Assembly: GCA_964596525.1 (NCBI GenBank)
Contig: CAZQUL010000001.1
Location: 1,276,312-1,340,311 of the forward strand
DNA length: 64,000 nt
Origin: an uncultured Gammaproteobacteria bacterium
GTDB lineage: Bacteria; Patescibacteriota; Patescibacteriia; Magasanikbacterales; GWA2-37-8
Direction: 5' to 3'
Part shown: positions 9,837 through 44,732 of the stretch, piece by piece
Numbering within the stretch: the first letter of the stretch is position 1
Layout: every line of letters starts with the position of its first letter
Program-made: the position numbers and the translations under genes
Notes under the pieces: generated by a model
Seen by the model: only the letters and a program-made list of their open reading frames with translations
Database searches by the model: none
What the model was told of the DNA's origin: nothing

Positions 9837-9857
9837 GAACAAAGCACCCCTAAAAAC

Positions 9858-9890
9858 AAAGCACCCCCGTTTCCTCGAAAGGAAACAGGG
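9858..9890 (-). terminator. terminator-like hairpin downstream of the high-GC lipoprotein gene
   Basis: CCCCGTTTCC-tcgaaa-GGAAACAGGGG, followed on the minus strand by a T-rich tract. Confidence 0.45.
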
Positions 9891-9945
9891 GTTTGAGCCG
9901 AGACGCGGCGGCGTGCGTCAGGGACTCAGGGGGCACACAGGGCCG

Positions 9946-10449
9946 CTACTGGATGAACGGGAGGAGCGTGCAGTAGGCCACGCGCTCGCCGTTGGGGAGC
10001 GGCTGCTGGAGGTTGCTCAGGACGACCTTGGTGAGGCCGCCCCGGGCGTAGGCGGCGGTCACCCACGCGGCGCCGAAGCGCTGCGGGAAGTCGGGCCGCG
10101 ACTCCTCGGTGACGCGCACGCCGGTCTTGTTGCCGTCGTACGTGGCCTGCTCCAGCTTGACCCAGGCGTCGAACTTGATGCCCTTGATGGTCTGCGAGCA
10201 GTTCTGGTAGTTGCTGTCGCAGGCGTACGGGTCCTGACCCTCGACAGCGCCGTCCGAAGCCGCGCAGTGGATGGCCGCGAACTTGGCGATGTCCTCGAAC
10301 TGGAGAGGCGTGCCGCCGGTGTTCTTGATCCAGCTCACGGTGGCGTCGCTGTTGAAGGCCTGATCGTCATAGAGGCCGCAGCCGGTGACGGAGGTGGCGA
10401 GGACGGAGGCGACGAAGGAGAGGCTGAGGGTGAGGGTGAGCTTGTTCAT
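9946..10449 (-). CDS. G+C-rich lipoprotein gene (hypothetical secreted lipoprotein)
   Basis: 167 aa; MNKLTLTLSLSFVASVLATSVTGCG (signal peptide plus lipobox); AAGGAG RBS; coding region visibly much more G+C-rich than the flanks; the antisense 237-aa ORF is a Gly/Arg-rich artefact. Confidence 0.6.
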   Translation of the reverse strand: MNKLTLTLSLSFVASVLATSVTGCGLYDDQAFNSDATVSWIKNTGGTPLQFEDIAKFAAIHCAASDGAVEGQDPYACDSNYQNCSQTIKGIKFDAWVKLEQATYDGNKTGVRVTEESRPDFPQRFGAAWVTAAYARGGLTKVVLSNLQQPLPNGERVAYCTLLPFIQ

Positions 10450-10534
10450 GGGATGCTCCTTTCGTTGTTCTCTGAGATGTTCAAGGCGTTAACGTTCGGG
10501 ACCGGGTAGCAGACCATGGGCAATGGTGCCGTAG

Positions 10535-10588
10535 ATCTACAACCGTACTTTCAGCGGCAGTGGTGGCGCGGAGAGTACGGTTGTAGAT
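10535..10588 (-). other. 15-bp perfect-stem hairpin in the 5' UTR of the lipoprotein gene
   Basis: ATCTACAACCGTACT - 24-nt G+C-rich loop - AGTACGGTTGTAGAT; no T-run follows, so not an intrinsic terminator. Confidence 0.5.
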
Positions 10589-10649
10589 GTTGTTCAAAGA
10601 ACGGAGATAGATCCTTGGTTCAGTGCCTATCTCCAGTCTCGAACTCTGC

Positions 10650-10679
10650 AGTATACCATACTTTGACAGTCTTGTCAAG
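10650..10679 (-). promoter_or_regulatory. sigma70-type promoter P1 (minus strand) driving the lipoprotein gene
   Basis: Reverse complement reads TTGACA-agactgtcaaagtatggc(18)-TATACT. Confidence 0.55.
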
Positions 10680-10756
10680 TATATCTCGGAGTGGTCAATT
10701 TGATTGGGTCTTTTTAAAGAACCTTGAGGCAGGTTCTACGATCACTCACGAGCATT

Positions 10757-26343: not shown

Positions 26344-26569
26344 CTGTTTCAGCGAATATAAGCTAAAAAGCGCCTTACCTGGCGTTTTTTGGTTTATGTC
26401 TAACAAACGAGCCCTTTAAACCGCTTAAATAAGCATAGTGCATTATTATTTGACTTATCCCGAGATATTCTTGACAATATTGTATAACTATGTTTAACTT
26501 GTCATTGTTCGCTTGCTCTCTGCACAACACCCACAACGTTCGACGACTTTGACCTCGGAGGAAGCACCC

Positions 26570-27193
26570 ATGTCGACCCTGAAGAACACTGGCCTCGCCG
26601 CCTTCTCGCTGTTCACCCTGCTGACCGGCTGCGGCGCTCCGGACCTGAACCCCGGCTCGACGCCCGGGGGCCCCATCGGTCCCATCGCGAGCACGGACCC
26701 GCTGCGCGAGGCCGACATCCCCGGCCCCTATACGATCGATGTCTCGACGGCGACCGACACCTGCCGCGGCCTGAACGAGGCCGTGTCGATCCTCAACAAG
26801 TCGGGCCTCTGGGGCACCTTCCAGGAGCCCAAGCTCGCCTGCACGTTCCCGCTCGACACGCGGCTCCCGCAGCGCGAGTTCTGGCTGTCCATCAGCCAGC
26901 TCGACGAGACCCGGCGCAGCACGACCCTCGGCTGCGAGTTCATGGGCAGCGAGATCCTGTTCCGCAACACGTTCGCGGTCCGCATGATCAAGAGCAGCAA
27001 GGACGGGGACCGGACGTTCAGCCTGAACTTCCAGTACCTCGAGATGTTCACCGGCATTTCCGTCTCGAAGATCGGAAGCAACGAGGACATCATCTCCGTG
27101 CTCGAGGCGTCCCAGGCGACCCGGCCGCCGGTCAACCCGCAGAACTTCATGTTCTGCCGGCTCGATCTGACGCCCGCCCTCAGCAAGCTGTAG
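26570..27193 (+). CDS. second G+C-rich lipoprotein gene (hypothetical)
   Basis: Start at MSTLKNTGLAAFSLFTLLTGCGAPDL (lipobox LLTGC) with GGAGG 8 nt upstream; coding region much more G+C-rich than flanks; overlapping 185-aa antisense ORF judged artefactual. Confidence 0.6.
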   Translation: MSTLKNTGLAAFSLFTLLTGCGAPDLNPGSTPGGPIGPIASTDPLREADIPGPYTIDVSTATDTCRGLNEAVSILNKSGLWGTFQEPKLACTFPLDTRLPQREFWLSISQLDETRRSTTLGCEFMGSEILFRNTFAVRMIKSSKDGDRTFSLNFQYLEMFTGISVSKIGSNEDIISVLEASQATRPPVNPQNFMFCRLDLTPALSKL

Positions 27194-27242
27194 TCGCCAC
27201 CTGGCCTGCAGCGGCTGAGAGGCTTCGCACTGTGCATTCCCA

Positions 27243-27270
27243 CCCCCGTCCCTGACGGGGGTTTATATTT
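27243..27270 (+). terminator. rho-independent terminator
   Basis: CCCCCGTC-cct-GACGGGGGTTTATATTT. Confidence 0.6.
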
Positions 27271-30758: not shown

Positions 30759-30861
30759 TGTCATTGCGAGCGGCAGCGAAGCAATCCCCTTGATTCCAGA
30801 GCTCTTTCTGACATCGAAGGGATTGCTTCGTCAGTCGTCTAACTCCTTCCTCGCAATGACA
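30759..30861. repeat. about 100-bp palindromic (MITE-like) element, copy 1
   Basis: Outer arms TGTCATTGCGAG / CTCGCAATGACA and inner arms GAAGCAATCCC / GGGATTGCTTC; shares its termini with the element at 52759-52857. Confidence 0.55.
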
Positions 30862-30889
30862 CATTTTACAAAGGGCTGTTCTGCGCTTT

Positions 30890-31651: not shown

Positions 31652-31670
31652 ACTCCCCCGCGCGGGCGTC

Positions 31671-32162
31671 TTATTCGGCACCCATCATGCCGGACGTTTC
31701 TTCGACCGGAGCGGATTTTTTGGAACGGGTTGTGCGGGCAGGCTTGGGAGTTTCAAGACCTTCGACACCGGTCATACTGACCTTACCGTAGAGCACGGCG
31801 CCTGGTTCGACCGAGAGCGTTTCCACTTCCACATCGCCGATGATGCGACCCGTAGAGAGAAGTTCGAGCGAACCCATGATCTTCATGTTACCGCGCACCT
31901 CGCCCGAAATTTTGGCCGTGCCGGCTTGGACATTGGCGAAGATTTTGGCACCGGTTTCTACCAAGAGAAGTTTGGAGGTATATACCGTACCGGTCACCGA
32001 GCCTTTGACGATAATGTCGCCCTCGGAAGAAAAATCGCCTTCGACGTGCACCGAAGGACCGACGACCGTTTCGACGGTGTCGTCGTTCTCGACGCGTTCG
32101 TAGGCGGCTTCGTACTGTTCAGCCGGTGGCTGCGGGGCAGGTTTGGCTTTTTGGAAGATCAT
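31671..32162 (-). CDS. bactofilin-family cytoskeletal protein
   Basis: Start at MIFQKAKPAP...; repetitive beta-helical core (VHVEGDFSSEGDIIVKGSVTGTVYTSKLLLVETGAKIFANVQAGTAKISGEVRGNMKIMGSLELLSTGRIIGDVEV). Confidence 0.7.
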   Translation of the reverse strand: MIFQKAKPAPQPPAEQYEAAYERVENDDTVETVVGPSVHVEGDFSSEGDIIVKGSVTGTVYTSKLLLVETGAKIFANVQAGTAKISGEVRGNMKIMGSLELLSTGRIIGDVEVETLSVEPGAVLYGKVSMTGVEGLETPKPARTTRSKKSAPVEETSGMMGAE

Positions 32163-32274
32163 ACAAGGGTGGAATGAAAAAATGAACATGGTTAGTATAC
32201 CTAAAAAATGGGCTTTTGCCCATCGTGCTTAGTCTGTTGACAACTAAAAGTGTTCAGGCTACCGTGAGTGGCAT

Positions 32275-33672
32275 ATGCAGCATATCCATTTCATCGGCAT
32301 CTGCGGCGTGGCCATGTCCGCGCTTGCGGTGTTGTTTAATAAAAAAGGCTGGAAGGTAACGGGTAGCGACGTGGGTTTTTATCCGCCGGTATCGACCTAT
32401 TTGGAACAAGAAAACATCGCGTTTTATGCTGGGTGGCACCCGGAAAAGATGGGCAAGCCCGACATTGTGGTGGTGGGTAATGTGGCTGGATCGGAAAATG
32501 CAGAGCTCAAGGCGGCCGAAGAACAGGGGCTCCGTACCATGTCGTACCCTGAACTTGTTGCCGAATTTGTAGTAAAAAAAAACTCTATCGTGTGCGTAGG
32601 CACTTACGGTAAAAGCTCTTCGACGACGCTCGTTGCCTACCTTCTTAAATCTGCAGGCAAAAACCCAACGTACATGATCGGCGCTTTGCCGATCGATTTA
32701 CCGGGAAGCGCCGAGGATCCGGTAAGCAGTACCTGGAGCGTACTCGAAGGCGACGAATATAAGACGAGCCGAACCGATCTGCGCGCTAAATTTTTCTCCT
32801 ACCGCCCGACACATCTGCTTTTAACAGGCTTGGCCTGGGACCATGCTGATGTCTACCCGACCGAAGAAGCGTATCTGAACGCGTTCCGGAAACTGCTGCG
32901 CATGATTCCGGCCCACGGACTCATCGTAGCTTGCACGGATAATACTTTGGTAAAGCAGATCATCGACGAGGCTCTGCACGATGAGCGCTTCCAAAAGCCA
33001 CGCATCATTACCTACGGAAAAAACGAACGTGCCGATGTTCGGCTTGTGGATGTTACCGAAACGACTGAGGGTGTGACAGCACGTGTTTTACAAAACGGCA
33101 CGCCTTTCACGTTACATGCCCCGTTGGTCGGCGGTTACATGGCCGAAAATATCTGTGGGGCTTTTACACTCACGACGGCCATCGGCTGCAAACCAGACGA
33201 AGTAGCTACTGCTCTTGGTGGGTTCCACGGACTTAAACGCCGCCTGGAACTACGAGGTAGTACCGCCCGCGGCGCTCGCGTGTATGATGACATTGCGCAT
33301 TCACCCGTGAAAGCGCGCTCAACACTCGAAACACTTCGCCGTTTGTTTCCTGAACACACGATTACTGCCGTGTTCGAACCTAATACCGGTAATCGCACGC
33401 CTGAGGCCGAACCGCAATACGCCCACGCTTTTACCGCCGCAAATCGTGTAGTACTCCCCCGTCTTACCAAACTCAAAAAAAATCCCAATGCTGTGGTGTG
33501 GGACACAACTGATCTCTTACGCGTCATCGGAGCCACACATCCGACCGTCCACATGATTGAAGACGACGAAAAACTGGTCGCATTTTTACGCCAGACAACT
33601 GACAAAGATATTATTGTCTTCATGGGCAGCCACGGCTTCCGCGGCATGATCGAGCAAACACTCGCACCCTAG
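32275..33672 (+). CDS. mpl: Mur ligase family protein, MurC/Mpl type (closest in motif content to murein peptide ligase Mpl)
   Basis: 465 aa; HIHFIGICGVAMSALA, YPPVSTYL, GTYGKSSSTT, EGDEY, WDHADVY, RRLELRG and YDDIAHSP line up with Mpl-specific blocks (YPPMST, EADEYD, EFDHADI, RRLELRG, YDDFAHHP). Confidence 0.75.
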   Translation: MQHIHFIGICGVAMSALAVLFNKKGWKVTGSDVGFYPPVSTYLEQENIAFYAGWHPEKMGKPDIVVVGNVAGSENAELKAAEEQGLRTMSYPELVAEFVVKKNSIVCVGTYGKSSSTTLVAYLLKSAGKNPTYMIGALPIDLPGSAEDPVSSTWSVLEGDEYKTSRTDLRAKFFSYRPTHLLLTGLAWDHADVYPTEEAYLNAFRKLLRMIPAHGLIVACTDNTLVKQIIDEALHDERFQKPRIITYGKNERADVRLVDVTETTEGVTARVLQNGTPFTLHAPLVGGYMAENICGAFTLTTAIGCKPDEVATALGGFHGLKRRLELRGSTARGARVYDDIAHSPVKARSTLETLRRLFPEHTITAVFEPNTGNRTPEAEPQYAHAFTAANRVVLPRLTKLKKNPNAVVWDTTDLLRVIGATHPTVHMIEDDEKLVAFLRQTTDKDIIVFMGSHGFRGMIEQTLAP

Positions 33673-33677
33673 ATTCA

Positions 33678-33842
33678 TTACTTTCCTTCGTCCATGATTT
33701 CGGCCGCCCAGACAGTACCGTCATTGCCGGTGAGTTTGAGGGTAATGCCGCACATGTGGCACTCCACGACCGTGCCGGTTTGGAGCTCGGTATAAGGGTT
33801 TAAATCAACGGTGTTCTTGCATTCTGGACAAATGAGGTTCAT
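33678..33842 (-). CDS. small zinc-ribbon protein (54 aa), LysW-like fold
   Basis: Not in the ORF track: MNLICPECKNTVDLNPYTELQTGTVVECHMCGITLKLTGNDGTVWAAEIMDEGK; CPxC ... CxxC spacing as in LysW/ArgW carriers, but the C-terminus ends -DEGK, not the -EDWGE needed for carrier function. Confidence 0.4.
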   Translation of the reverse strand: MNLICPECKNTVDLNPYTELQTGTVVECHMCGITLKLTGNDGTVWAAEIMDEGK

Positions 33843-33984
33843 AGAGGTAAAGTATGGTGTTCATGTAAAGAATTTCTTTGATTAAAGCATATTTTAAGGA
33901 AAAACGCTAGACACGCACTTATCATTGCGAGCCGGCAGGCAGACTTGCGATGATGGGTATATAAAACATCCATCTCCTTCATCT

Positions 33985-34893
33985 ATGAAAAGCCCCCAAC
34001 TTCCCGCTCCTCGGCTTGCTGCCGCGCTCGGCCTCACAAGCGAAGTGTGGCTCAAACGCGAAGACCTGCACAAAAGCGGCTCTCACAAAGGCCGCTCGAT
34101 TCCGCATATGATTAAGGAATACACCCGGGCCGGAAAACGCCGTTTCGTTATTTCTTCCTCGGGAAACGCAGCCCGCTCCGCGATGCAAGACGTGGCAAGT
34201 CACAATAAAAACCCCCAAGCCGAGCCGCTCGAGCTTGTTGTGCTCGTGGGAGAACATATCGATACCGGAAAATGGGATATCTTGAAAAAATGCGCTGAAA
34301 CGACTTCGGGTATCACGCTTATACAGCATACTAACCCCCGCCAGGAGGCTCAGCGTTTGAGCCAAAAAGGTTACCAGCTTCTGCGTCAATCGACAGACGA
34401 TACCGCACTGTTTGGGTACGGAGAGCTGGCTCTTGAGCTCCATCGCATTCCCGGACTTTCTGCAGTGTTTATTCCAACTTCGAGCGGCACACTAGCCGAA
34501 GGGATATATCAAGGTTTTATCCAGGAAAATACCTCCCCACTCCCAGAATTTCACATCGTGCAAACCGTGAGCTGCCACCCGCTTGCAACTGCTTGGTTTG
34601 CGAACAAAAAACAAAAACTTTCAGAACTGCCAGCCGAAATATCGCTCGCCAGCGCGATCACAGACAACATTGGTCAGCGCCAAAAACAGATCATCAACCT
34701 TCTCACCGCTACACGCGGCGCGGCCTGGATCATTACCAACGAACAAATACAAAAAGCCCAGCACCTGGTGCTGGAAAGTGAAGGGGTCGAGATTTCCGCG
34801 ACTAGCGCTTTGAGCGTCGCTGCATTGCAAGCCGCCCTCGCGAGCGGATGGAAACCGCAGGGCGCCGTCGCTTGCCTTATTACCGGCCCCTAA
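33985..34893 (+). CDS. PLP-dependent enzyme, fold type II (tryptophan-synthase-beta/threonine-synthase superfamily)
   Basis: Start at MKSPQLPAP...; LKREDLHKSGSHKGRS carries the PLP-lysine motif (cf. SFKDRG); a Gly-rich loop (IPTSSGTLAEG) follows. Confidence 0.55.
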   Translation: MKSPQLPAPRLAAALGLTSEVWLKREDLHKSGSHKGRSIPHMIKEYTRAGKRRFVISSSGNAARSAMQDVASHNKNPQAEPLELVVLVGEHIDTGKWDILKKCAETTSGITLIQHTNPRQEAQRLSQKGYQLLRQSTDDTALFGYGELALELHRIPGLSAVFIPTSSGTLAEGIYQGFIQENTSPLPEFHIVQTVSCHPLATAWFANKKQKLSELPAEISLASAITDNIGQRQKQIINLLTATRGAAWIITNEQIQKAQHLVLESEGVEISATSALSVAALQAALASGWKPQGAVACLITGP

Positions 34894-36927
34894 TTAGCGT
34901 TCGCTCGTGAGCATGATTTCACGCTTGCCGTCGAAGTTGACGTCCGCGGTTGCAATGCGCACATCAGAGGCAGAGCCGAAGATGCCGCGCGTTTCGTACT
35001 CGTCGCGCTTTTTGAGGGACGAATTGAAGATCCGGATGAGTGGACGGCCGGTTTCGGGCAAGGTAATGATCTCGTCGCGCCCATCCCCATCCACATCACC
35101 CGCCGCCACCTGCACGCCATCGGCGTATTTTTTGTCGTACGGGGTGAGGCGCGCTACAGCCTTGTAAAGAAACCGGTCGTAGATATAGATTTCATTAGCG
35201 CGGCCTTTGCCGGTGCCAACTAAGAGTTCTCCGTGTTTATCACCCACGACATTACCAAACGCCAGGGTAAAACCACCCTGGTATTTTGACCCGAGCGGGG
35301 TATCGGTTTTAATCTTTTGCCCAAGATGGTTGTAGACAACAAGCCCGCTGCCGACTTCTTGGGCTACCGCGATAGCGAGTGGGTCCGTGGCTACGAGCCG
35401 CCCGACTGCCAGCCGGATACCGTAACGGTAATACGCGCCAAAAGGAAAATCTTTAAAAACAACGTTACCCTGCGCATCGAGCACCTTAAGCTCCGGTCCT
35501 TCGACAATGACTTTTTCTTCGGTACCATCACCAGTCAGGTCACCAATGAAAAGGCGGGCACCAGAAGCGACCGCGCGGTCTTCGACAAATATGCCATTGC
35601 GAGCACGGAACCCTTTAGCGTCGAAGAAACGGGCAAATGATCCGTTGGTAAAAACAGAATTACGCACCACTTCGAATGTCTTGAGCACAACGAGCCCGTC
35701 CTGCGCTCCGATAGTGACTGCATCAACAATACGGCCGCTATTGACCGTGCGATCTTGCGTGCCGAAAAGCGTTTCAAAGTCGCCTTGGAGATCGACTTTT
35801 TTCTGTTCGTTAGATGGATTAACGAGCGCTACGCCATTTTGAAAATCACGCCGCCATACCGCGGTTTCTGCGTAGTCGAGCGGCGTTTTAACAACCGATT
35901 GGGCATTGCCGCGCGGTGCGCCGAGCGAGAAATTGTATTCGTCATACCACCACAGCTGCGTATGATCGTTAGTACCGTAATCGAACGAAAAATATCCGTC
36001 GTGCATCAGCGCGCTTGCCAGACCGAAACGCATTTCGCGGTAATCGTTCTGACGCCCGGTATTTTTGGTATTGCTATTGAAAATAAGCAGTCGTTTGCCA
36101 GGTGTAGACACGTAGTCGCGGGCGAGACCCATAGTGTAGCGCCAGCCGAATTCCGGAAAATTCTCAAAGAGCGCAGCCTGCAAGTCAGTACGGTAAACGG
36201 AACTGCCTGCACCCGTGTTGCCCGCAACAAGAAAACCAGACGGCACGACGCGCCGCGTCTCGGCAAAAAGCGAGCGGTAACCTTCGCGCCAGGCTTCATC
36301 GCCGTTTAAATCTGCCCGGCCATCGCGATTGTAGTCGGCCTGTCCTTTAGTGAACCATTCAACGTCTTGCCAAACGTTATCGTAAAAAACACCGTCCCAC
36401 ACGCCGGCAGTCGCGATTTCGCGTCCTACGAACTGGGCTAAATACGTGCTCCACCGGGTACCGCCGACGACCGGCGACGCAGCAGACATATTGAGCATGC
36501 TCGTACCCGGCCAAAAGGTGAGGCGGTTCTGGTTTGCGTCCGTGAGATACCATTCGGCAGCAATACCCTGCACGAGCTTGCGACGCATCGCGCTTGGGCT
36601 GGTAGCCGCATCATTAGCAATTTCTTGCGAGGTCACGTAAGCGAGCAAAATAATGGACGGATTAAGCTCACGCAATTTTTTAAGCTTTTCGGAATTGCGC
36701 GCCTGGTTTTCCATGTCGAGAATAACGATATCCCATTTGGCAAGTTCGGGCAGCTGATCATCGCGCAAATCCCACGCCAAAAAATAATTAGCAAGCCGCG
36801 GCGCGGTATGGCCTGGACGGAGCGGAGCCGCACGGGTAGCCAGCGGCGAAAAAAGTAAAAAAAGACTTGCGCAGGACGTAGCAAGAAGGAGAACGGTGTA
36901 AATTCGCTGGAAAAATCCTCGCATCAT
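34894..36927 (-). CDS. secreted protein: N-terminal glycoside-hydrolase-like domain plus C-terminal FG-GAP/VCBS-type repeats
   Basis: 677 aa; signal peptide LLLATSCASLFLLFSPLATRAA; C-terminal repeats GDLTGDGTEEKV, GDVDGDGRDEII, DVNFDGKREIM. Confidence 0.45.
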   Translation of the reverse strand: MMRGFFQRIYTVLLLATSCASLFLLFSPLATRAAPLRPGHTAPRLANYFLAWDLRDDQLPELAKWDIVILDMENQARNSEKLKKLRELNPSIILLAYVTSQEIANDAATSPSAMRRKLVQGIAAEWYLTDANQNRLTFWPGTSMLNMSAASPVVGGTRWSTYLAQFVGREIATAGVWDGVFYDNVWQDVEWFTKGQADYNRDGRADLNGDEAWREGYRSLFAETRRVVPSGFLVAGNTGAGSSVYRTDLQAALFENFPEFGWRYTMGLARDYVSTPGKRLLIFNSNTKNTGRQNDYREMRFGLASALMHDGYFSFDYGTNDHTQLWWYDEYNFSLGAPRGNAQSVVKTPLDYAETAVWRRDFQNGVALVNPSNEQKKVDLQGDFETLFGTQDRTVNSGRIVDAVTIGAQDGLVVLKTFEVVRNSVFTNGSFARFFDAKGFRARNGIFVEDRAVASGARLFIGDLTGDGTEEKVIVEGPELKVLDAQGNVVFKDFPFGAYYRYGIRLAVGRLVATDPLAIAVAQEVGSGLVVYNHLGQKIKTDTPLGSKYQGGFTLAFGNVVGDKHGELLVGTGKGRANEIYIYDRFLYKAVARLTPYDKKYADGVQVAAGDVDGDGRDEIITLPETGRPLIRIFNSSLKKRDEYETRGIFGSASDVRIATADVNFDGKREIMLTSER

Positions 36928-36960
36928 AACGGCCTAATCTACCCAAAAATACTCTTTTTG

Positions 36961-38025
36961 TCAATCATTCACCCCCGCCACGCGCTCATATACGCTTTCA
37001 TGCAAGCGCGCAACCGCGGTAATAGAGCAACGCTGGCTGCGCACACGAGCTGCTTCGCCTTGCCCACACAGTGCATCCCAATGTTTGTGGTACCAAATTA
37101 TTTTTTCTGCCAGCTGCGAGGTATTTTCTACCTCAAACAATGCGCCGGTAATGCCATCTTCGACGAGCTCGGTGAGCCCTCCGGTGCGGGCAGCGATAAC
37201 CGCGCGTCCGGCTGCCATAGCTTCCATAACCACGATACCCAAACCTTCCCAACGCGAAGGAGCAATGAGGAGATGGTGTGAGGTGAAAAGTTCGGGGATG
37301 GCTAAGCTGGTGCGCACGAAGTTAATGCGGTCTTTGAGGCCGAGTTCTTGGGCAAGCGCAGCAAGAGGTTCGTACAACTCACCTTCACCCACGCAGGTAA
37401 GCTGCCAATTGCCCGGCACATGCGCCAAAGCTTTGAGTGCAATGTCATAACCTTTCTGCTCAGTGAGGCGGCCGATCATAAGAAGTTTAAAGAGCTCAGG
37501 CGCAGCTGCGGGAACCGGAGGAACACTCGCGAAACGTTCGGTGGAAATGCCGCACCGGACAGTGGTAATGGGGGCGGTGATACGGTAAAAATCCTTCATC
37601 CAAACATGGATTGCCTCAGAGGTGGCGAGGTACGCAACGCTCAGATGGCACAGTTTTCGTTTGAACCACCCTTTAAGAGCAGATTCAGGGCGCACGTTAT
37701 GCTCGGTGGAAACGGTCGGAATACCGGCAAAGTACGCAGCGATGCGACCCCATGCATCTGCGCCAAAAAGATGGGTGTGTACAATGTCGGGCTTGAGTTT
37801 TTTAAGGAGATGGTAGAGCGGAATGATTTTGAGGGGACCGAAACCGCGGACGTCGTAGACGGCGGCATGCCGGCCGAGTTCGGGTGCGAGCGGACGGTCG
37901 GGATGAAAAAGAATGACACTCGAGCGAACGAGAGCCGGGTCGAGATGGTTAACAACATCAACGACATTGCGCTCCGCGCCGCCAAAACGCAGCGACGGAA
38001 TGATCTGCACGACATGAATGGGCAT
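36961..38025 (-). CDS. family 4 (GT-B) glycosyltransferase
   Basis: 354 aa; MPIHVVQIIPSLRFGGAERNVVDV... N-terminus and C-terminal EGLGIVVMEAMAAGRAVIAARTGG (E-x7-E region). Confidence 0.8.
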   Translation of the reverse strand: MPIHVVQIIPSLRFGGAERNVVDVVNHLDPALVRSSVILFHPDRPLAPELGRHAAVYDVRGFGPLKIIPLYHLLKKLKPDIVHTHLFGADAWGRIAAYFAGIPTVSTEHNVRPESALKGWFKRKLCHLSVAYLATSEAIHVWMKDFYRITAPITTVRCGISTERFASVPPVPAAAPELFKLLMIGRLTEQKGYDIALKALAHVPGNWQLTCVGEGELYEPLAALAQELGLKDRINFVRTSLAIPELFTSHHLLIAPSRWEGLGIVVMEAMAAGRAVIAARTGGLTELVEDGITGALFEVENTSQLAEKIIWYHKHWDALCGQGEAARVRSQRCSITAVARLHESVYERVAGVND

Positions 38026-38026
38026 A

Positions 38027-39472
38027 CTACGGGGAATCAGACGAAGAGCTTAGTCGATCCAGATACCGCGCCGCGAGGGCAACGCCGATCGGCATCCACA
38101 TGACACTCGTAAAATACGATGTATTGAACAATTGAAATGTAACCGCACCAACGACCATAACAAACATCGCCAAAGCGCGGGAATGAGGGGCGTCTCCATC
38201 ATTCGTGCGGCGCGGATAGATGGTTATGAACAAAGCGATAAGTGCTAAGAAGAAAACCACTATACCGACAATCCCCTGTTCCAAAAGGACTTTTTGGATA
38301 AAACCATGCGATTCAAGAGCCTCCCCGAATTCAACTACGTATTCATGGGTATTTTCGAAAATGGGAATATACATCCCTGGCCCATGCCCGATAAGCGGCG
38401 AGCGCCAAAAATAAAAAGCGGCGATTTCGGTCGTGAGTATGCGGGCGAAATTGGAGCTCGAGACGATGGAGGAGCGCAAGAAAAAAATCATGTATAGCAA
38501 AAGCGCACTCCCCACCGCGACGAGCGGACCAATAAGGTATGTGCCGATTTTTTCCCACACTATTTTTACCGCCGAACGTAAAAGGAAGGCCGCAACAACG
38601 GCCTGCACCGCCAAACTTATCCAGCCGGCGCGCGATAGCGTAAGCAGTTCTGCTACTACCATAAGCACGGTACCAAGCGCCAAGAACGGCGCGGTTTCGC
38701 GGTTCTCTCGGTACGCTTCCCATGCTTTCCAGATACCGACGGGAATGAGCGCGACCAGCACTTCGGCGATAAGGTTGTGGTTATACCCAAGCGGGGCGAG
38801 CGAATTGATGCCATAGGGCGTAACGCGCCACCAGCCAGTCTGCGGCACGACGACAAGGGACGAAAGACCAAATAGAGCGATTCCGACACCAACCCCCCAC
38901 CAGATCGACAGCACCCGCTCTAGAACCGTCTTGGAATTAATGAGTAGTGGCGGCAAGAGACCGTAGAGCACAAACGTGAATGCGATCGGCCGCACTAGAT
39001 ACTTAAACGATAAACCGCTATTTCCCTCGTAAGCACCCAAAGCTGAAACCGCGCTCACAAGAATAAACAATGCGTACAGCCCGATAAACCACCGCGGAGC
39101 GTGCAGGCTCTTCCACTGCAACGGTAAGGCACCCACTAACACCGAAAGAACGACGCCAGCACCAACCATCATGGCTATAAAATCGATGAGCGGCGCGTTG
39201 ACAGACGAGAGATACGCAACATTGCGGGCAAAATCGTAGGCATTAAGGTAGATGAACCAATTGCTGAAAAAACAAAACAGGGCCATGAGATACACGCCCC
39301 AACGGATATTGAAAAGAAATACCCCTAAAAGAAGGCTACCAAGCAAAAAAATACCGCTATCAATGAACCATTCGCCGGGCAAGAAAAACGCCACAACGAG
39401 AGAGAGCGTGAGGAGAAGTCCGCCGTAGTAAACACGCTGCTGAGGAGTGATGGTGAGGACACGCCACGCCAT
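38027..39472 (-). CDS. O-antigen ligase/polymerase-like (Wzy_C family) membrane protein
   Basis: 481 aa, about 10-12 TM helices; LTLSRAGWISLAVQAVVAAFLL loop characteristic of O-antigen ligase-like proteins. Confidence 0.65.
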   Translation of the reverse strand: MAWRVLTITPQQRVYYGGLLLTLSLVVAFFLPGEWFIDSGIFLLGSLLLGVFLFNIRWGVYLMALFCFFSNWFIYLNAYDFARNVAYLSSVNAPLIDFIAMMVGAGVVLSVLVGALPLQWKSLHAPRWFIGLYALFILVSAVSALGAYEGNSGLSFKYLVRPIAFTFVLYGLLPPLLINSKTVLERVLSIWWGVGVGIALFGLSSLVVVPQTGWWRVTPYGINSLAPLGYNHNLIAEVLVALIPVGIWKAWEAYRENRETAPFLALGTVLMVVAELLTLSRAGWISLAVQAVVAAFLLRSAVKIVWEKIGTYLIGPLVAVGSALLLYMIFFLRSSIVSSSNFARILTTEIAAFYFWRSPLIGHGPGMYIPIFENTHEYVVEFGEALESHGFIQKVLLEQGIVGIVVFFLALIALFITIYPRRTNDGDAPHSRALAMFVMVVGAVTFQLFNTSYFTSVMWMPIGVALAARYLDRLSSSSDSP

Positions 39473-39527
39473 ACAGAGTAGAAGTGTTAAGCACGTTCAT
39501 AGTATCAATAAATTACTGTTCGGACAA

Positions 39528-39565
39528 TAAAAAAGACCCCTTCCGCTCAAAAGCGGTAAAGGGTC
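39528..39565 (-). terminator. rho-independent terminator of the third high-GC lipoprotein gene
   Basis: Nested hairpin CCCTTCCGCT-caaa-AGCGGTAAAGGG followed on the minus strand by TCTTTTTT. Confidence 0.55.
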
Positions 39566-39629
39566 CGGTGTGCAGACTCCCCAGTCTGCACGGACTACGC
39601 GTCACGCACGGGGCCGGTGCTGCGGGTTG

Positions 39630-40226
39630 CTACTGGCAGCCGCCGAGGATGCCCTGGATGAACAGGTTCACGATCGTGCTGCCGCCGGTGTACGTGATCT
39701 CGGGCAGCGCGCCGAGCTGCTCGCCGTTGACCTCGACGGTCACGAGCTCGTTGTCGTGCGGGCTGCGGCCCGGGATGCCCGCGGTGAGACCGGACTTGAG
39801 GTCCACCTTGAGCTGGATGCCCTGGGGCACCAGGCCGGCCTCGATCTTCTTGCCGCCGACGGTGTCGGTGGTGGTGATGGCCGCGAGGCACGCCACGCTG
39901 GGCAGGGCGAAGATGGCCGGGGCCGCCTTGCTCGCCGCCTTCTTCTGGACGCCGGAGTCGCCGAGCGCGCTGACCGCCGTCGAGTAGTACATGACGGTGA
40001 TGTCGACGGGCACGGCGCTGAGACGCGGGGTGACCTTGAGGTTGATCGCTCCCGGCGCGGCGACGGTCAGGTTGCGGGCGATGTTGTCGGGCGCGGGCTG
40101 CTGGGCATCCGGGTTGGGGTTGTTCGGCAGCGGCTGGGGGGCCGCTTCGGTGCCGCACGCGCCCACGAGGGCGAGGACGGCGGCGCCGAGGCCGAAGTTG
40201 AGGAACGAACGGAGGGAACGGTTCAT
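39630..40226 (-). CDS. third G+C-rich lipoprotein gene (hypothetical)
   Basis: Start at MNRSLRSFLNFGLGAAVLALVGACGTEA (lipobox LVGAC) with AGGAGAA RBS; coding region very G+C-rich vs flanks; the overlapping 250-aa and 254-aa ORFs in other frames are Arg/Gly/Pro-rich artefacts. Confidence 0.6.
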   Translation of the reverse strand: MNRSLRSFLNFGLGAAVLALVGACGTEAAPQPLPNNPNPDAQQPAPDNIARNLTVAAPGAINLKVTPRLSAVPVDITVMYYSTAVSALGDSGVQKKAASKAAPAIFALPSVACLAAITTTDTVGGKKIEAGLVPQGIQLKVDLKSGLTAGIPGRSPHDNELVTVEVNGEQLGALPEITYTGGSTIVNLFIQGILGGCQ

Positions 40227-40585
40227 GGGTCTTCTCCTGTGCACCTCGCTGTCGGGTGCGTTGACAGAAAATACGGTAGCAGAAGAAGGTCTTTTTGTCA
40301 AGTATTCTATGGATATCTTTGAGGTCGATTTTTTGAAGTTTTCTACAGTCAAACTTCATCTTTTATTTATCTTCCACAGCAGACCCTTTACAACGTTTTT
40401 TTATGGTGTAGGTTGTTTCCTAAGGGGGACGCGCTGCTGCATGTTCGGCAGTTTTTTTGTTGCCCTCAATTGGCTCGTTGACAACTCAACCCAAGGAGCT
40501 TGTTATGTCTACTACCTTGCCTCGTGCTACACTGCCTCCAGAATCTAGTCACCCTGCCACAACTCGTGGCGCTAAGGAGAATCCT

Positions 40586-41254
40586 ATGAAAACTTCTTCT
40601 GCTCATCTGCGTACGTTTCTCATCACTCTTGGTCTTGGCACCCTTGCCCTCATGGGCATGCGGTGTAATGGGTTTACCCCGGGCGGCGAAGCGTATCCGA
40701 AAGCTACGACGAGTATTCCGAGGTATACGTACAAGACGGTGATAGGTAAAGTTACTTGGCCGTCTCCGAATTCGATTGACCAGCAAGCGCTTGCCGCCAT
40801 TCCATCGGCGGAGCGAGAGAAACTCAAGCTCTCCGGCGTGCCGGTGTTGGTGCCGAGGGATCCGAAGTTCCTCAAGACAGGAATTATGATAAATCCTACG
40901 GAAACAGGCTACGCTTTTGGACCTGCTGACTGGGTAGAAGGGATAGATACGACAATAAACGGGGGTCGTATTGGCGATACGTCCGACGCCCCAATCTCAA
41001 CTAACGCGTATGAACAAAGTTCTAACAGCGTCAAAGTTGGTGAGTTTAATGTCGTGTTTTATCAGAACGAAGCTGGTACATGGTACGGAACCTGGGGTGC
41101 TTACGGCGATATGGGCTATCTCATGAGTTTTAGATGTCGAGATCGCCAGGATTCCCGTTGCGCTAACGAGAGCCAGCTTAAAGAGCTTATAAGAAATCTC
41201 GTCTTCGTTGGTGGCAACTTTATCCCTTACGAAACCACCATCCTCGACCAGTAA
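40586..41254 (+). CDS. hypothetical secreted protein
   Basis: AAGGAG 6 nt before the ATG at 40586; MKTSSAHLRTFLITLGLGTLALMGMRCNG signal peptide. An alternative start at 40505 also has an RBS. Confidence 0.5.
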   Translation: MKTSSAHLRTFLITLGLGTLALMGMRCNGFTPGGEAYPKATTSIPRYTYKTVIGKVTWPSPNSIDQQALAAIPSAEREKLKLSGVPVLVPRDPKFLKTGIMINPTETGYAFGPADWVEGIDTTINGGRIGDTSDAPISTNAYEQSSNSVKVGEFNVVFYQNEAGTWYGTWGAYGDMGYLMSFRCRDRQDSRCANESQLKELIRNLVFVGGNFIPYETTILDQ

Positions 41255-41275
41255 CCACAAGAAAGAGAGTGTGTC

Positions 41276-43162
41276 ATGAAAAAGATCGCTGTGGCTCTGT
41301 CGGTAGGAACTGCCACTATCTTTGGCGCCTTCTTTGCCCTCAACAGGGTAGAAGCCCAAAGTGAAACCCAAAAACCTGTCTTTAGCTACTACCCACCTGG
41401 TAGCATTGAGCCTAAGAGTGGTGCTGGTGCTAAACCTGAGTTTCAGCTTAGCACCGGCTATGTCGATTATACCGTTCATGCTCCCGGTATTGGTTTCCCG
41501 CTTAAGCTACCTGCCTTCCCTAACTCTCAAGTATATCGTCCTGGGGGAGAATTCTATGCCTTAAAAGGCGACGGAAAATGGCAGTGCGACAAAAGCAACT
41601 ACAGCTATCCGTGGCGGGACAACTATTGCGAGAAACGATCGTGGGATGTTGATGACTGCCAGGGCGGTCATGGGCACCAGGGACAAGACATCCGGCCTTC
41701 GACATGTGTCACTGATACGCACGAAGTGGTGGCGGTAGAGGATGGTGTCATATCTGAAATTCCTGCGCTGGGAGAGCTTTATGTCAAAAGTATCGACAAT
41801 AAGCGTCTCTACGACTACTTCCATATGGAGTTCGTCCGTCACAAGGTAAAAGATAATGGCGGACTGCTTTTGGACGCTAAGGAAAACCCCATAGAAATAC
41901 CTGGGACGAGGGTAAGTTTCAAGAAGAATGATCCTATAAAAAGAGGCCAGATACTTGGTTATGTTTCCACTTTTTCGGGTGGGAGTAGAGATGTCACTTC
42001 TCGTCATCTGCACCTCGCTCTTAGAAAGCACAGGTACGACAGCAGCGGAAAGATTCTGTACGGTGGCGCTTTCTTCTACCACTCCCCCTACATGTCCCTC
42101 GTCCGCGCCTATGAAGCAGCTCTGGGAACTGAAGGTGTAATGCTTTCCGCCCCGGTCATCTGCAAGGCCGGCACCGCTCGTTGCACCGATACGTCGATAG
42201 TTTCCTGCAACAGCGACGGAACATCGGAGAACTTGACTCCCTGCAAAACCACAGCGTGCAAGAACGACGTGATCTGCAAAACCGGTGTCGCCGATCCGCC
42301 GCCTGCCAAACCTCCTGATCTTTCTCTCCCGCCACCCAAAGACATGCCCACCCCACCACCCCCACCCGACCTCACCCCGAGTTGCCGACCTGAAGCCTGC
42401 ATCTGCGGGTGCGGTGGTGCCACGTGCCGTGCACAATCCTGTACGCCCTACTCCACCTACTGTGCCGATTCATCGCGCCTTTTCCAGTGCGCCAACGACG
42501 GATGCTCCTTTACGTTCACGCCCTGTCCGTATGGTTGCAGTGGCAATGTCTGCAAAGACAGCTCCGGCATGGTGCCAGACATGTCCATGCCTGTCCGTGA
42601 CATGGCTGGAGTGGATTTAGGTCGTCCGACCGAGATTTGCAATGGAATCGACGACGACAGCAACGGCATTATCGACGACAGGACGGAGTGCTGGACGTGG
42701 ATCACCCGCTTCAAAGATCCCATCACCGGGGCACGCTGTTACGGCGTTGGTTCCACCCCTCCGTTTGCCTGCGCAGCGTATGACCGCGAGTTCACCTTGT
42801 TTGCGGTTCCCTCTGTCGCCTGGAGCGACGGTAGCAATGCTCTCTGGGTACAGTGCAGCCGCGGCATCGACCACGTCATTACCAAAAAAGACGGTGGTGA
42901 GCGAGTGGCACTCGAAGGGCTCGGGTGGAACTGTTTCCTGGAGTTGGGATATTTCTTCAACTCGGGGATGGGTCCTCGAACGCCTAAGCGCACACCGTAT
43001 GCGAACACGTGTCCGCTGTACCGGCAGCGTTTTTCTACCTCTGGCTCACAGTCGCATCTTTTCACGCCCTTCTCAGAATCTGTCACCAGTGCGGTCTGCG
43101 AACCGCCGGCCCGGGCTGATGTGGTGGCTGTGAGCTCGTGTGGGTTGCCGGTGGGGTGTTAG
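41276..43162 (+). CDS. secreted M23/LytM-family metallopeptidase fused to Cys-rich domains with a MopE-like CxxGxDDDxNGxxDD motif
   Basis: 628 aa; signal peptide; M23 blocks GHQGQDIRP...HEVVAVEDGVI...GQILGYVS...HLHLAL; Pro-rich linker; 30+ Cys; TEICNGIDDDSNGIIDDRTEC. Confidence 0.65.
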   Translation: MKKIAVALSVGTATIFGAFFALNRVEAQSETQKPVFSYYPPGSIEPKSGAGAKPEFQLSTGYVDYTVHAPGIGFPLKLPAFPNSQVYRPGGEFYALKGDGKWQCDKSNYSYPWRDNYCEKRSWDVDDCQGGHGHQGQDIRPSTCVTDTHEVVAVEDGVISEIPALGELYVKSIDNKRLYDYFHMEFVRHKVKDNGGLLLDAKENPIEIPGTRVSFKKNDPIKRGQILGYVSTFSGGSRDVTSRHLHLALRKHRYDSSGKILYGGAFFYHSPYMSLVRAYEAALGTEGVMLSAPVICKAGTARCTDTSIVSCNSDGTSENLTPCKTTACKNDVICKTGVADPPPAKPPDLSLPPPKDMPTPPPPPDLTPSCRPEACICGCGGATCRAQSCTPYSTYCADSSRLFQCANDGCSFTFTPCPYGCSGNVCKDSSGMVPDMSMPVRDMAGVDLGRPTEICNGIDDDSNGIIDDRTECWTWITRFKDPITGARCYGVGSTPPFACAAYDREFTLFAVPSVAWSDGSNALWVQCSRGIDHVITKKDGGERVALEGLGWNCFLELGYFFNSGMGPRTPKRTPYANTCPLYRQRFSTSGSQSHLFTPFSESVTSAVCEPPARADVVAVSSCGLPVGC

Positions 43163-43277: not shown

Positions 43278-44732
43278 ATGGCCTACGGAAATTCTGAACT
43301 CATCGATAAAGTCCCGCCCCAAAGCCTGGAAGCCGAAATGTCATTTCTCGGCTCGCTTTTGATTGACAAAGAAGCGCTCCTCAAAGCCGCGGATTTGGTG
43401 AAGCCGAACGATTTCTACAAAGACGCACACGCGACTATTTACGAAAGCATTTTAGAGCTCTACGACAAAAGCGAACCGATCGACCTTTTGACGCTTGCCA
43501 ACCGCCTCACGGAACGCGGCGTGCTCGAAGCCGTGGGCGGGCGCAACTATTTGGCCGAGCTAACAAGCGCGGTTGCAACCGCCGCCAATGTAGTGCACTA
43601 CGCTTCGATCATCCACCGCAAAGCCACCCGGCGCCGCTTACTTTCGGCTGCGCACGAAATCAGCCGCTTGTCCTACCAAGAAGATTCCGAAGATTTGGAA
43701 ACGATTCTCGATGAAGCGCAACAACATCTCTTCGGTGTATCGCAAACGCACTTCAAACAGGCGTTCACCCCGGTGCACAGTGTGCTTTCGGGCGCGTTTG
43801 AGCGTATCGATGAACTACACCGCAACCAGGGCAAGATGCGCGGTATTCCAACCGGTTTCCGTGAACTCGATTACAAACTTTCGGGTTTGCAGAGATCCGA
43901 TCTCATCATCATCGCCGCGCGTCCCAGTGTGGGTAAAACCACCTTCGTGATGGACATGGTGCGCCACATCGGCTCCCGTGAAAAAATCCCGGTCGGCGTG
44001 TTTTCACTCGAAATGAGCAAAGAACAACTCGTCGATCGTATGTTATCCTCGGAGTCGAACGTGGATTTGATGCGCATCAGAAATGGACGTCTTAATGACG
44101 GTCCGGATTCTGATGATTTCGCACGCATCGGTCATGCCATCGGAACGCTTTCGGAAGCACCCATTTTTATCGATGATTCTCCGAGCACAAACATTATGCA
44201 GATCCGCACCAAAGCACGCCGTCTGCAGAGCGAGCACGGGCTTGGACTCATCGTCATCGACTACTTGCAGCTCATGGAATCCCAAGGGGACATTGAAAAC
44301 CGCGTGCAAGAAGTTGCCAAAATCACCCGCGGCCTGAAAGGCATCGCCCGTGAACTCAACGTTCCGGTCATCGCCCTTTCACAGCTCGCCCGCGCCGTGG
44401 AACAAGAAAAACCGGCCATCCCCAAACTCGCCCACCTGCGTGAATCCGGTTCGATCGAGCAGGACGCGGACATTGTCATCTTCCTCTACCGCAAAGCCGC
44501 GGACCGCAACTACCAACTCGACAGCATTCCACCCGATGAACGCCGTATCGCCGAAATCCACATTGCTAAACACCGTAACGGTCCGACCGGCGTAGTGAAA
44601 CTTCTTTTCAACGACGCGTGCGTCTCGTTCCGCAACCTAGAAGCGAACATGAACATTCCGGATGCTGGCGGGGCGCCGCAGGGCGGACCAAAAGCGCTCA
44701 AACCCAAATCAGCGTTTACGAAGGCAACCTGA
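43278..44732 (+). CDS. dnaB: replicative DNA helicase DnaB
   Basis: 484 aa; PQSLEAEMSFLGSLL N-terminus, Walker A ARPSVGKTT, Walker B LIVIDYLQLM, arginine finger region. Confidence 0.95.
   Translation: MAYGNSELIDKVPPQSLEAEMSFLGSLLIDKEALLKAADLVKPNDFYKDAHATIYESILELYDKSEPIDLLTLANRLTERGVLEAVGGRNYLAELTSAVATAANVVHYASIIHRKATRRRLLSAAHEISRLSYQEDSEDLETILDEAQQHLFGVSQTHFKQAFTPVHSVLSGAFERIDELHRNQGKMRGIPTGFRELDYKLSGLQRSDLIIIAARPSVGKTTFVMDMVRHIGSREKIPVGVFSLEMSKEQLVDRMLSSESNVDLMRIRNGRLNDGPDSDDFARIGHAIGTLSEAPIFIDDSPSTNIMQIRTKARRLQSEHGLGLIVIDYLQLMESQGDIENRVQEVAKITRGLKGIARELNVPVIALSQLARAVEQEKPAIPKLAHLRESGSIEQDADIVIFLYRKAADRNYQLDSIPPDERRIAEIHIAKHRNGPTGVVKLLFNDACVSFRNLEANMNIPDAGGAPQGGPKALKPKSAFTKAT

Follow-up and report, generated by a model that had tools for sequence, protein, structure and literature searches.

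An apparently hypervariable lipoprotein gene of extreme G+C content at a conserved locus of a Candidatus Magasanikbacteria genome

We have analysed a 64,000-nucleotide stretch of an uncultured bacterial genome (GenBank assembly GCA_964596525.1, contig CAZQUL010000001.1, positions 1,276,312 to 1,340,311; hereafter the window), and in particular the lipoprotein gene that lies on its minus strand at 39630-40226. We call this gene lip3, and the other two G+C-rich lipoprotein genes of the window lip1 and lip2. We favour the reading that lip3 is a resident allele of a hypervariable lipoprotein locus, that its G+C bias is proper to the cassette in which it sits, and that its product has a role in conflicts at the cell surface; taken as a whole, we believe this reading about as strongly as we doubt it. 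Judged from the sequences, lip3 would belong to a new and tiny lipoprotein family, previously undescribed, that is common to the chromosomes of Magasanikbacteria and to temperate-phage-like elements.

Codon periodicity, a lipobox and 22 alignment columns that are invariant over five homologues together indicate that lip3 is a true lipoprotein gene. The G+C content at codon positions 1, 2 and 3 of its frame is 0.66, 0.49 and 0.965, and this periodicity marks the frame as the coding one. Overlapping open reading frames (ORFs) of 250 amino acids (39570-40322, plus strand) and 254 amino acids (39595-40359, minus strand) were considered as a second gene and rejected. They are rich in Arg, Gly and Pro and antisense-like in composition, and their high G+C content falls at codon position 1, so that they are frame-shifted by-products of lip3, spurious as the initial annotation had called them. 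That annotation also described a 199-residue lipoprotein with an LVGACG lipobox; the lipobox stands, and the length is 198 residues, ending in a TAG stop codon at 39630-39632.

The N-terminus of the prolipoprotein reads MNRSLRSFLNFGLGAAVLALVGAC and continues with G; it comprises two Arg residues, a hydrophobic core and the lipobox V-G-A-C (within LVGAC). The signal peptide read from the sequence (residues 1-23; 40158-40226) has the form MNRSLRSFLNFGLGAAVLALVG, in which Arg3 and Arg6 are followed by 15 hydrophobic or small residues, and L-V-G-A-C24 agrees with the pattern [LVI][ASTVIG][GAS]-Cys of the PROSITE PS51257 type. Cys24 (40155-40157), the predicted site of lipid modification, and Gly25 are invariant in the alignment of all five family members. 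Through Cys24, the mature protein would be lipid-anchored on the outer face of the cytoplasmic membrane of a monoderm-type cell of the candidate phyla radiation (CPR). A spacer of about 30 residues, rich in Pro, Gln and Asn (residues 25 to about 55), would then hold out a domain of about 145 residues that is predicted to be beta-rich (residues ~56-198). This domain is probably stapled by a disulfide between Cys112 and Cys197, both of which are kept in four of the five family members.

A word-indexed search of 5.8 billion proteins returned only the lip3 protein itself, recorded on an NCBI contig of 1,343,778 bp, whereas an exhaustive phmmer search of 1.84 billion representative proteins returned four true homologues (P0003-P0006) of 176-207 residues that are 29-39% identical to lip3. 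All four have a lipobox, and the shared motifs of the five-member alignment are GIT..AT.DG, PQGIE.KV, AG..G..P.DN and LLGC. Among 15 billion proteins, every allele forms a cluster of its own. A scan of Genome Taxonomy Database (GTDB) representatives with lip3 gave no match, a metagenome scan with lip3 found P0005 again and nothing else, and a hidden Markov model of the family found no further members among all ORFs of 80 related dnaB loci. Two weak phmmer matches were set aside: P0007, an Ig-like repeat protein with which hhalign aligns only the signal peptide (probability 2%), and P0008, a match to a low-complexity repeat protein.

Two of the four homologues occupy the chromosomal site of lip3. 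The 80 loci came from a search with dnaB, which is the upstream anchor of the locus (43278..44732, plus strand), and the best of them are from Candidatus Magasanikbacteria/Patescibacteria metagenome-assembled genomes (MAGs) at 58-81% identity; on this evidence, the genome studied here is that of a Candidatus Magasanikbacteria member (CPR/Patescibacteria). P0004 lies on contig JBPOHP010000136 (L085) of MAG_113, which is the nearest relative available and the same MAG that holds the best dnaB match (81%). The order on this contig is lip, an M19 peptidase, a Wzy-like protein, a methyltransferase, a GT4 glycosyltransferase and a GHL15 protein, of which the Wzy-like, GT4 and GHL15 proteins are respectively 56, 45 and 57% identical in amino acid sequence to those of the window. 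P0006 lies on a 1.5-kb Joint Genome Institute contig (L084) that carries the 5' end of dnaB on the reverse strand, a promoter with the motif CTTGACAA, lip, its terminator and the start of a Wzy-like gene whose first 61 residues are 60% identical to those encoded in the window. A G8 homopolymer at about 60-70 of L084, in the reverse-strand dnaB start, seems to shift the frame there and is probably a sequencing or assembly error.

The dnaB contig of MAG_113 (L003) ends in the same promoter and hairpin of the 5' untranslated region (UTR), and its lip contig L085 begins at the ribosome-binding site (RBS). The two contigs appear to abut when read against the continuous L084, with no exact overlap found, so that the break in the assembly falls at the start of the variable part or no more than a few bases from it. 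From these contigs, the ancestral order of the clade is read as dnaB divergent from and directly adjoining lip, with lip followed by the Wzy-like, GT4 and GHL15 genes. We read lip3 as a positional orthologue and not as an insert. Relative to MAG_113 and L084, the extra material in the present genome is instead a pair of plus-strand genes at 40505-43162, between lip3 and dnaB, for a secreted 249-residue protein and an M23-like, Cys-rich 628-residue protein. The proposal in the initial annotation that a foreign lipoprotein gene had been inserted here is unsupported for lip3, given the same-site homologues in relatives, the host-like signals described below and the lack of any high-G+C homologue among the proteins searched. 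This verdict covers lip3 only, since lip1 and lip2 are without detectable homologues.

The other two homologues are on phage-like contigs. P0003 is encoded on a contig of 33 kb between tail-fibre-like genes and an integrase gene (phrog_1, E = 6e-45), directly upstream of the latter; this contig also carries an O-like replication initiator, an AAA ATPase and two tRNAs. P0005 adjoins RusA. Each is a stand-alone gene with its own promoter and terminator. On both contigs, lip converges on an ORF for a homologous small single-pass membrane protein (...GGIFIIGLFLF...KIRGKR...; L083:10559-10768 and L088:380-508, both on the minus strand), which could be a functional partner of the phage-borne lipoprotein.

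The flanks and the coding part of the chromosomal locus have fared very differently in two close relatives, L084 and MAG_113, to which the following comparisons refer. The first 61 residues of the Wzy-like protein are 100% identical (87% at the nucleotide level), the lip 3' UTR and terminator are 94% identical in nucleotides, and the intergenic region between dnaB and lip, which holds the promoter and 5' UTR, is 79% identical. In contrast, the lip proteins share only 39% of their residues, and their DNA can be aligned over 81 nucleotides only, at 72%. Across the family, the chromosomal alleles are no nearer to one another (35-39% identity) than to the phage copies (28-37%), which share 46% between themselves. 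As far as sequence comparison can tell, a divergent coding sequence (CDS) between conserved flanks is the mark left when alleles are replaced, or diversify very strongly, in the coding part only, and the locus looks like a hypervariable allele cassette. The lip allele would thus be replaced, or would diversify, as a unit the size of the CDS. We considered whether lip3 is the target of a diversity-generating retroelement and set this aside; no second copy of any part of 39520-40310, and hence no template repeat, is present in the 64-kb window, and no search was aimed at a reverse transcriptase.

The sequence around lip3 predicts a stand-alone, single-gene transcription unit with a host-type promoter, an RBS, the gene and an intrinsic terminator. 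The sigma-70-type promoter (40273..40302, minus strand) has the -35 element CTTGACAA (40295-40302), a 17-nucleotide spacer and the -10 element TACCGT (40273-40278), and a strict consensus scan missed it because this -10 box is weak. The motif CTTGACAA occurs six times in the window, with 2.0 occurrences expected, and four of the six lie upstream of the three GC-rich lipoprotein genes; it also precedes the lip orthologues in L084 and MAG_113. The 5' UTR (40227..40265; GC 0.64) contains a small hairpin (CTGTC...GACAG) and the RBS AGGAGA (40233-40238) 6 nucleotides before the ATG, and the orthologues have a similar hairpin followed by AGGAGG. On the other side of the gene, the 3' region (39528..39629) consists of a GC-rich 3' UTR of about 70 nucleotides (39562-39629, GC 0.71) and the terminator, for which the folded RNA has a predicted free energy of -46.4 kcal/mol (z = -2.24). 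A nested-hairpin terminator had been proposed; a terminator is indeed present, and its shape is that of two tandem hairpins (39570-39591 and 39534-39566) followed by a U6 tract (39528-39533), of which 39528 is the last T. The outer stem GACCC/GGGTC and the T-run are common to lip3 and its orthologues in L084 and L085.

The feature that first sets lip3 apart is its base composition. The window has a mean GC of 0.524 and three sharp GC islands, at 9851-10450 (GC 0.66, 200-nucleotide maximum 0.735), 26501-27250 (0.653, maximum 0.71) and 39551-40300 (0.68, maximum 0.74). The last of these is indeed the richest stretch of the window, as had been claimed, by a small margin. A maximum-likelihood change-point fit with two boundaries delimits a GC-rich segment at 39561..40194 (0.713 inside and 0.491 outside) that covers the CDS and the 3' UTR and not the promoter, which sits in AT-rich, host-like DNA. 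The G+C content at third codon positions (GC3) is 0.965 in lip3, compared with a mean of 0.579 (standard deviation 0.063, range 0.44-0.75) in the 52 other long ORFs of the window, a deviation of z = 6.1. It is true, as initially noted, that lip3 is the third of three high-G+C lipoprotein genes; GC3 is 0.96, 0.96 and 0.965 in three cassettes that are unrelated to one another, and A is nearly absent from their third positions (0.00-0.01; about 0.01 in lip3). The 3' UTRs are likewise GC-rich and GC1 and GC2 are slightly raised in the lipoprotein genes, which indicates that the force acts on the segment and not on codons as such. This is not a general habit of lipoprotein genes, since the median GC3 excess over 38 lipobox ORFs (three of them in the window) is -0.01, and the window itself has lipobox ORFs of ordinary composition at 422-1225, 12338-13300 and 15481-16758.

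Sharp boundaries of this kind might be expected if an assembler had joined unrelated sequences or admitted contaminating high-GC reads. A chimeric join at 39500-39630 or 40230-40460 had been named as the evidence that would undo the original interpretation, and there is no sign of one. Logan contigs from two sequencing runs, SRR11567528 and SRR11567520, match window positions 30832-40682 and 37831-40682 at 100% identity, and both cross both lip3 junctions. Each island, moreover, coincides exactly with a single complete gene that has a promoter of host type and a terminator, and independent projects have recovered GC-enriched homologues at the same locus. Both Logan contigs do stop at the same base, 40682, which lies 456 nucleotides upstream of lip3 inside the secreted-protein gene just past its signal peptide, and this coincidence can be counted in favour of an artefact. 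No repeat in the window accounts for the break, and strain heterogeneity is a possible cause. We regard a chimera as effectively refuted and hardly credible. In the literature, we found no report of the lip3 family, of these runs or of GC3-saturated genes in CPR bacteria.

A rival explanation for an island of this composition, and the one first proposed, is recent acquisition. A homologue from an organism of about 70% GC that has yet to be sampled (the cell on which the CPR bacterium lives, for example) would have taken the place of the resident allele, and lip1 and lip2 would have come from the same donor. Three genes at GC3 0.96 stand well outside the range of the 52 host ORFs, their 3' UTRs are GC-rich too and their GC1 and GC2 slightly raised, and their overall codon table resembles that of high-GC bacteria. 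Likewise, no homologue of lip1 or lip2 has been found, and the region is plastic, in that the gene order upstream of dnaB is not syntenic across relatives. However, several observations speak against such a donor. The positional orthologues in relatives have diverged from lip3 beyond synonymous saturation: at four-fold degenerate sites of conserved residues, the agreement between lip3 and its homologues is indistinguishable from saturation (0.30-0.47 observed, 0.32-0.37 expected). A bias inherited from an ancestor would thus have been lost if nothing upheld it, and must have been either maintained in place or imported again. No family member in a high-GC organism was found among 5.8 billion (word-indexed) or 1.84 billion (phmmer) proteins, and the contigs of the four homologues are of 41-53% GC.

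Furthermore, GC3 within the family follows the resident genome and not the allele. The lip value and the genome background are 0.965 and 0.58 in the window, 0.76 and 0.47 in MAG_113, 0.58 and 0.43 on the phage-like contig L083, and 0.60 and 0.30 on the contig L086, so that every member for which a background could be estimated exceeds that of its own genome. In L084, for which no background estimate is available, lip has a GC3 of 0.77, so that two highly divergent alleles in the near-identical backgrounds of MAG_113 and L084 are equal in GC3, just as the three unrelated cassettes of the window agree at 0.96. As read from these sequences, this pattern argues that GC3 is set by the genome in which the allele resides. 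Signals and codon choice are also of host type. The promoters are host-like, and all three cassettes stop with TAG, where the host uses TAA, TAG and TGA at 59, 27 and 14%; TGA is the dominant stop codon in high-GC bacteria. The choice among G- and C-ending codons is likewise the host's (CTC over CTG, and GGC far over a nearly absent GGG, as in rplL and rplJ), and the preference for CTC fits the tRNA-Leu(GAG) encoded in the window. Finally, we detected neither mobility genes nor tRNA targets nor flanking repeats at the cassettes. On balance, we consider a recent high-GC donor unlikely, and lean slightly towards the view that the extreme G+C content, by whichever route, belongs to the cassette itself, being kept up or produced within these genomes, and is not the leftover of an old transfer.

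If the bias is maintained in place, a GC-favouring force limited to the cassette would be needed. This force may be selection on the G+C content of the transcript or of the DNA; alternatively, GC-biased conversion might accompany frequent allele exchange. Translational selection for optimal codons in a very highly expressed gene is a more familiar force, and would agree with the consensus -35 box, the strong RBS and strong terminator, and the use of C-ending over G-ending codons, as in ribosomal protein genes. This explanation is largely refuted by the ribosomal protein genes themselves. In rplL and rplJ, GC3 is 0.56-0.64, AAA and GAA are preferred, and GCG and CTG are avoided, whereas the lipoprotein genes use AAG in 23 of 23 cases, GAG in 21 of 22 and GCG in 22 of 58. 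Expression level alone fails to explain the bias because these genes do not share it. The UTRs are also GC-rich, and an rplU gene adjoining a GC-rich ORF in another genome (L076, below) is AT-rich. We therefore rate translational selection as very improbable.

The parallel cassettes of the window are informative on whether lip3 is a solitary case. Cassette 1 (9897..10700, minus strand) lies between pyrH and rplJ and encodes lip1, a 167-residue lipoprotein (CDS 9946-10449, lipobox VTGC, stop TAG). Its promoter is a perfect TTGACA-N17-TATACT about 200 nucleotides upstream, and its leader contains a perfect 15-bp hairpin (ATCTACAACCGTAC...GTACGGTTGTAGAT). Cassette 2 (26460..27261, plus strand) lies between a metalloprotease-like gene and ndk and encodes lip2, a 207-residue lipoprotein (CDS 26570-27193, lipobox LTGC, stop TAG), with the CTTGACAA promoter motif at 26470-26477 and its own terminator. 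Searches with lip1 found no homologues, and the protein itself is absent from the 15-billion-protein collection; searches with lip2 gave the self-match only. The lip1, lip2 and lip3 proteins are not homologous to one another. All three cassettes nevertheless have a CTTGACAA-type promoter outside the GC-rich segment and their own terminator, and all three lie among housekeeping genes (pyrH/rplJ-rplL, ndk and dnaB). The promoters of cassettes 1 (10657-10689) and 2 (26460-26492) share a 33-nucleotide stretch at 82% identity that reads CGAGATAT, then A or T, then CTTGACAA. Beyond this common promoter motif, no shared flanking repeats or recombination sites were found for the cassettes, and no Rfam elements were found in them.

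The compositional anomaly apparently recurs beyond lip3 and beyond this genome. An unrelated family of ORFs of 220-224 residues, cytoplasmic-looking and lacking a signal peptide, is encoded about 1.6-1.9 kb downstream of dnaB in three Parcubacteria-type MAGs (L076:3287-3949, L080:13082-13744 and L081:3629-4303). Its GC3 values are 0.96, 0.93 and 0.80 in genomes of 39, 37 and 42% GC. In the first two, the ORF lies between an AT-rich rplU and tRNA genes, behind a strong TTGACA promoter and a long leader and ahead of a GC-hairpin terminator, and the third-base pattern (A3 about 0.01-0.02, C3 about 0.6) is like that of the window cassettes. The members searched gave no match to Pfam (L076 and L080) or NCBIfam (L076). 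Small ORFs for secreted proteins or lipoproteins with GC3 0.25-0.45 above background are also present at L005, L010, L017 and L026. Those at L005:4577-4828 and L026:14567-14926 are lipobox ORFs with GC3 of 0.86 and 0.78 at dnaB-centred loci of Magasanikbacteria-like MAGs whose genomes are of 44 and 40% GC. The ORFs at L010:237-566 and L017:6139-6474, in Magasanikbacteria MAGs of 39-40% GC, have a common upstream leader (translated NILTI.IFKCKIFTLP.NPIPG.KRSKEP) followed by differing small secreted proteins rich in Lys, Glu and Pro, with GC3 of 0.84-0.88; by sequence, this would be another arrangement of conserved leader and variable cargo. Unlike the cassettes, two adjacent genes for a 2OG-Fe(II) oxygenase and a nucleoside phosphorylase (L055:4908-5813, minus strand, and 5893-6777, plus strand), with GC3 of 0.80-0.85 against a genome GC of 43%, have the look of an ordinary metabolic islet acquired by transfer.

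One could suppose that hypervariability and GC3 saturation arise together, from a mutagenic and GC-biased process aimed at certain transcription units, such as targeted A:T-to-G:C hypermutation or very strong GC-biased conversion. Hypervariability and GC enrichment do coincide in the same CDS-sized segment between conserved flanks, all codon positions and the 3' UTR are shifted towards G+C in proportion to the weakness of constraint, third-position A is nearly gone, and the pattern recurs in the small secreted and lipoprotein ORFs of the four loci just described. Against this, no candidate enzyme, template repeat or retroelement was found near lip3 and no copy resembling a template repeat in the window; the 3' UTR combines a high G+C content with 94% conservation between L084 and L085, and the promoter-proximal leader of lip1 is not GC-rich. 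Such a process is also without precedent, and we judge it improbable. A broader proposition can be framed, namely that some CPR bacteria, and the phage-like elements with homologues, hold a class of single-gene cassettes, running from promoter to terminator and in many cases encoding small secreted or lipid-anchored proteins, that are driven from A:T to G:C by a process limited to the transcription unit. The process might be hypermutation aimed at these units, GC-biased conversion of unusual strength, or selection for transcripts that lack A/U and so withstand A/U-specific RNases. Synonymous sites would then saturate (A3 about 0 and GC3 0.93-0.97 in genomes of 37-52% GC), with extreme protein hypervariability as an accompaniment at surface-protein loci. 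We consider a class defined this widely to be distinctly unlikely, and offer it as speculation.

It is important to set out the points that weigh against our favoured reading of a resident hypervariable allele with a cassette-specific bias. We know of no bacterial mechanism that raises GC3 by 0.4 within sharp, gene-sized limits, and the GC-biased conversion that has been reported is, to our knowledge, far smaller. A uniform GC3 of 0.96 in three unrelated orphan ORFs is exactly what one recent high-GC donor would give, and the highly expressed rplL and rplJ genes are without the bias. The family has five distinct members, so that the comparative statements made here rest on few genomes, and the host of the phage-like contigs is taken, by inference, to be of CPR type. 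With regard to function, Pfam, NCBIfam, PHROGs, PADLOC, PDB sequences, tblastn against INPHARED and IMG/VR gave no meaningful match for lip3 or the family. The AlphaFold2 model of lip3 is all-beta and of low confidence (pLDDT 59.5), and a Foldseek search of this model against PDB and BFVD gave no match with E < 0.03.

Even so, three observations would suit a part in conflicts over surface recognition: the family is hypervariable, it has paralogues carried by phage-like elements next to an integrase, and lip3 adjoins a glycan cluster. Our best guess, by analogy with superinfection-exclusion lipoproteins, is that lip3 acts in phage exclusion or receptor masking, an idea that we hold tentatively and well short of conviction. 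Adhesion, or the recognition of a partner or host cell, is the main alternative.

The closest analogue is Ltp of the Streptococcus thermophilus temperate phage TP-J34, a lysogeny-module gene whose product consists of a lipid anchor, a spacer and an active domain built as a helical repeat (PMC3952083). Like Ltp, lip3 would be a small lipoprotein of a single-membrane (monoderm-type) cell with a lipid anchor, a low-complexity spacer and a globular domain; a relative of lip3 is a stand-alone unit beside the integrase of a temperate-phage-like element, and alleles differ between close relatives. However, there is no sequence similarity to Ltp, and the lip3 family is predicted to be all-beta where Ltp has a helical repeat. 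The PDB sequence search that bears on helical-repeat homology gave no match at E <= 1 save a spurious one to PsbX, and PHROGs gave none. In addition, lip3 is chromosomal, at a conserved housekeeping locus, and is known here from sequence alone. With no homology and a different predicted fold class, lip3 is not a member of the Ltp family.

Lambdoid phages reportedly carry 'morons' (the concept of Hendrix and Juhala), which are said to be stand-alone units of promoter, gene and terminator with deviant composition. The lip cassettes are similar in being single genes with a predicted sigma-70-type promoter and intrinsic terminator and a composition unlike that of their neighbours, on two phage-like contigs and at three loci of the window. 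They differ in that the window copies are among housekeeping genes (dnaB, pyrH/rplJ and ndk) and not in a prophage, a phage location holding for P0003 and P0005 only, and in that lip3 is positionally conserved across species and not sporadic. No phage genes were noted in the window, and lip3 is flanked by dnaB and envelope-glycan genes.

Hypervariable surface-antigen loci, such as those for O-antigen or capsule, for pilin, and for the surface-lipoprotein alleles of Neisseria and Mycoplasma, are replaced via recombination in conserved flanks. The lip3 locus shares with them the conserved flanks, the highly divergent central coding segment within near-identical backgrounds and the adjoining glycan-synthesis genes. 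Unlike them, the lip unit is a single small gene with extreme GC3 saturation, and no silent cassettes, repeats, invertible promoters or homopolymer switches were found at lip3. A transferred genomic islet would likewise resemble lip3 in its sharp borders and in a G+C content about 20 points above the genome. Yet lip occupies the orthologous site in relatives (MAG_113 L003/L085 and L084), no homologues were found on a donor side, the regulatory signals and stop codon are of host type, and the bias scales with the resident genome.

The neighbourhood of lip3 is roughly as originally described. Downstream and co-directional are genes for a polytopic Wzy-like membrane protein of 481 residues (38027-39472), a GT4 glycosyltransferase (36961-38025; Pfam E = 1.7e-34) and a protein with GHL15 and FG-GAP matches in Pfam (34894-36927), all on the minus strand. 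Among the envelope and secreted neighbours originally named, GT4 is confirmed by its profile, the Wzy or O-antigen-ligase-like protein matches no Pfam or NCBIfam profile, and the M23 peptidase match of the 628-residue protein scores 20.6 bits, short of the 28.7 required. The latter protein (41276-43162, plus strand) is secreted; it has a linker rich in Pro and a C-terminal half rich in Cys, together with a weak MopE-like CNGxDDD motif. The composition of this gene and its 249-residue partner is ordinary for the host (GC3 0.51 and 0.59). Neither has a homologue in the 80 related dnaB loci, and no repeats were found around 40.4-43.3 kb. Elsewhere in the window, an ORF of 1400 residues (59701-63903, minus strand) has an unusual GC2 of 0.52 and no NCBIfam match at E <= 1e-5.

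Given that the lip orthologues each keep a genome-specific GC3 excess, the extreme G+C content of a single gene is an unreliable sign of recent foreign origin in these genomes. If it is true that GC3 saturation reflects a dedicated mechanism or selection at the level of the transcript, bacterial genomes would be seen to evolve in a way not described before. CPR bacteria are believed to spend their lives attached to other cells, and very little has been learnt of their surface proteins or of their dealings with phages. The lip3 locus offers a clean example of what we read as a hypervariable allele cassette between conserved regulatory flanks, beside a surface-glycan cluster, and it is plausible that this locus is a determinant of phage or partner specificity.

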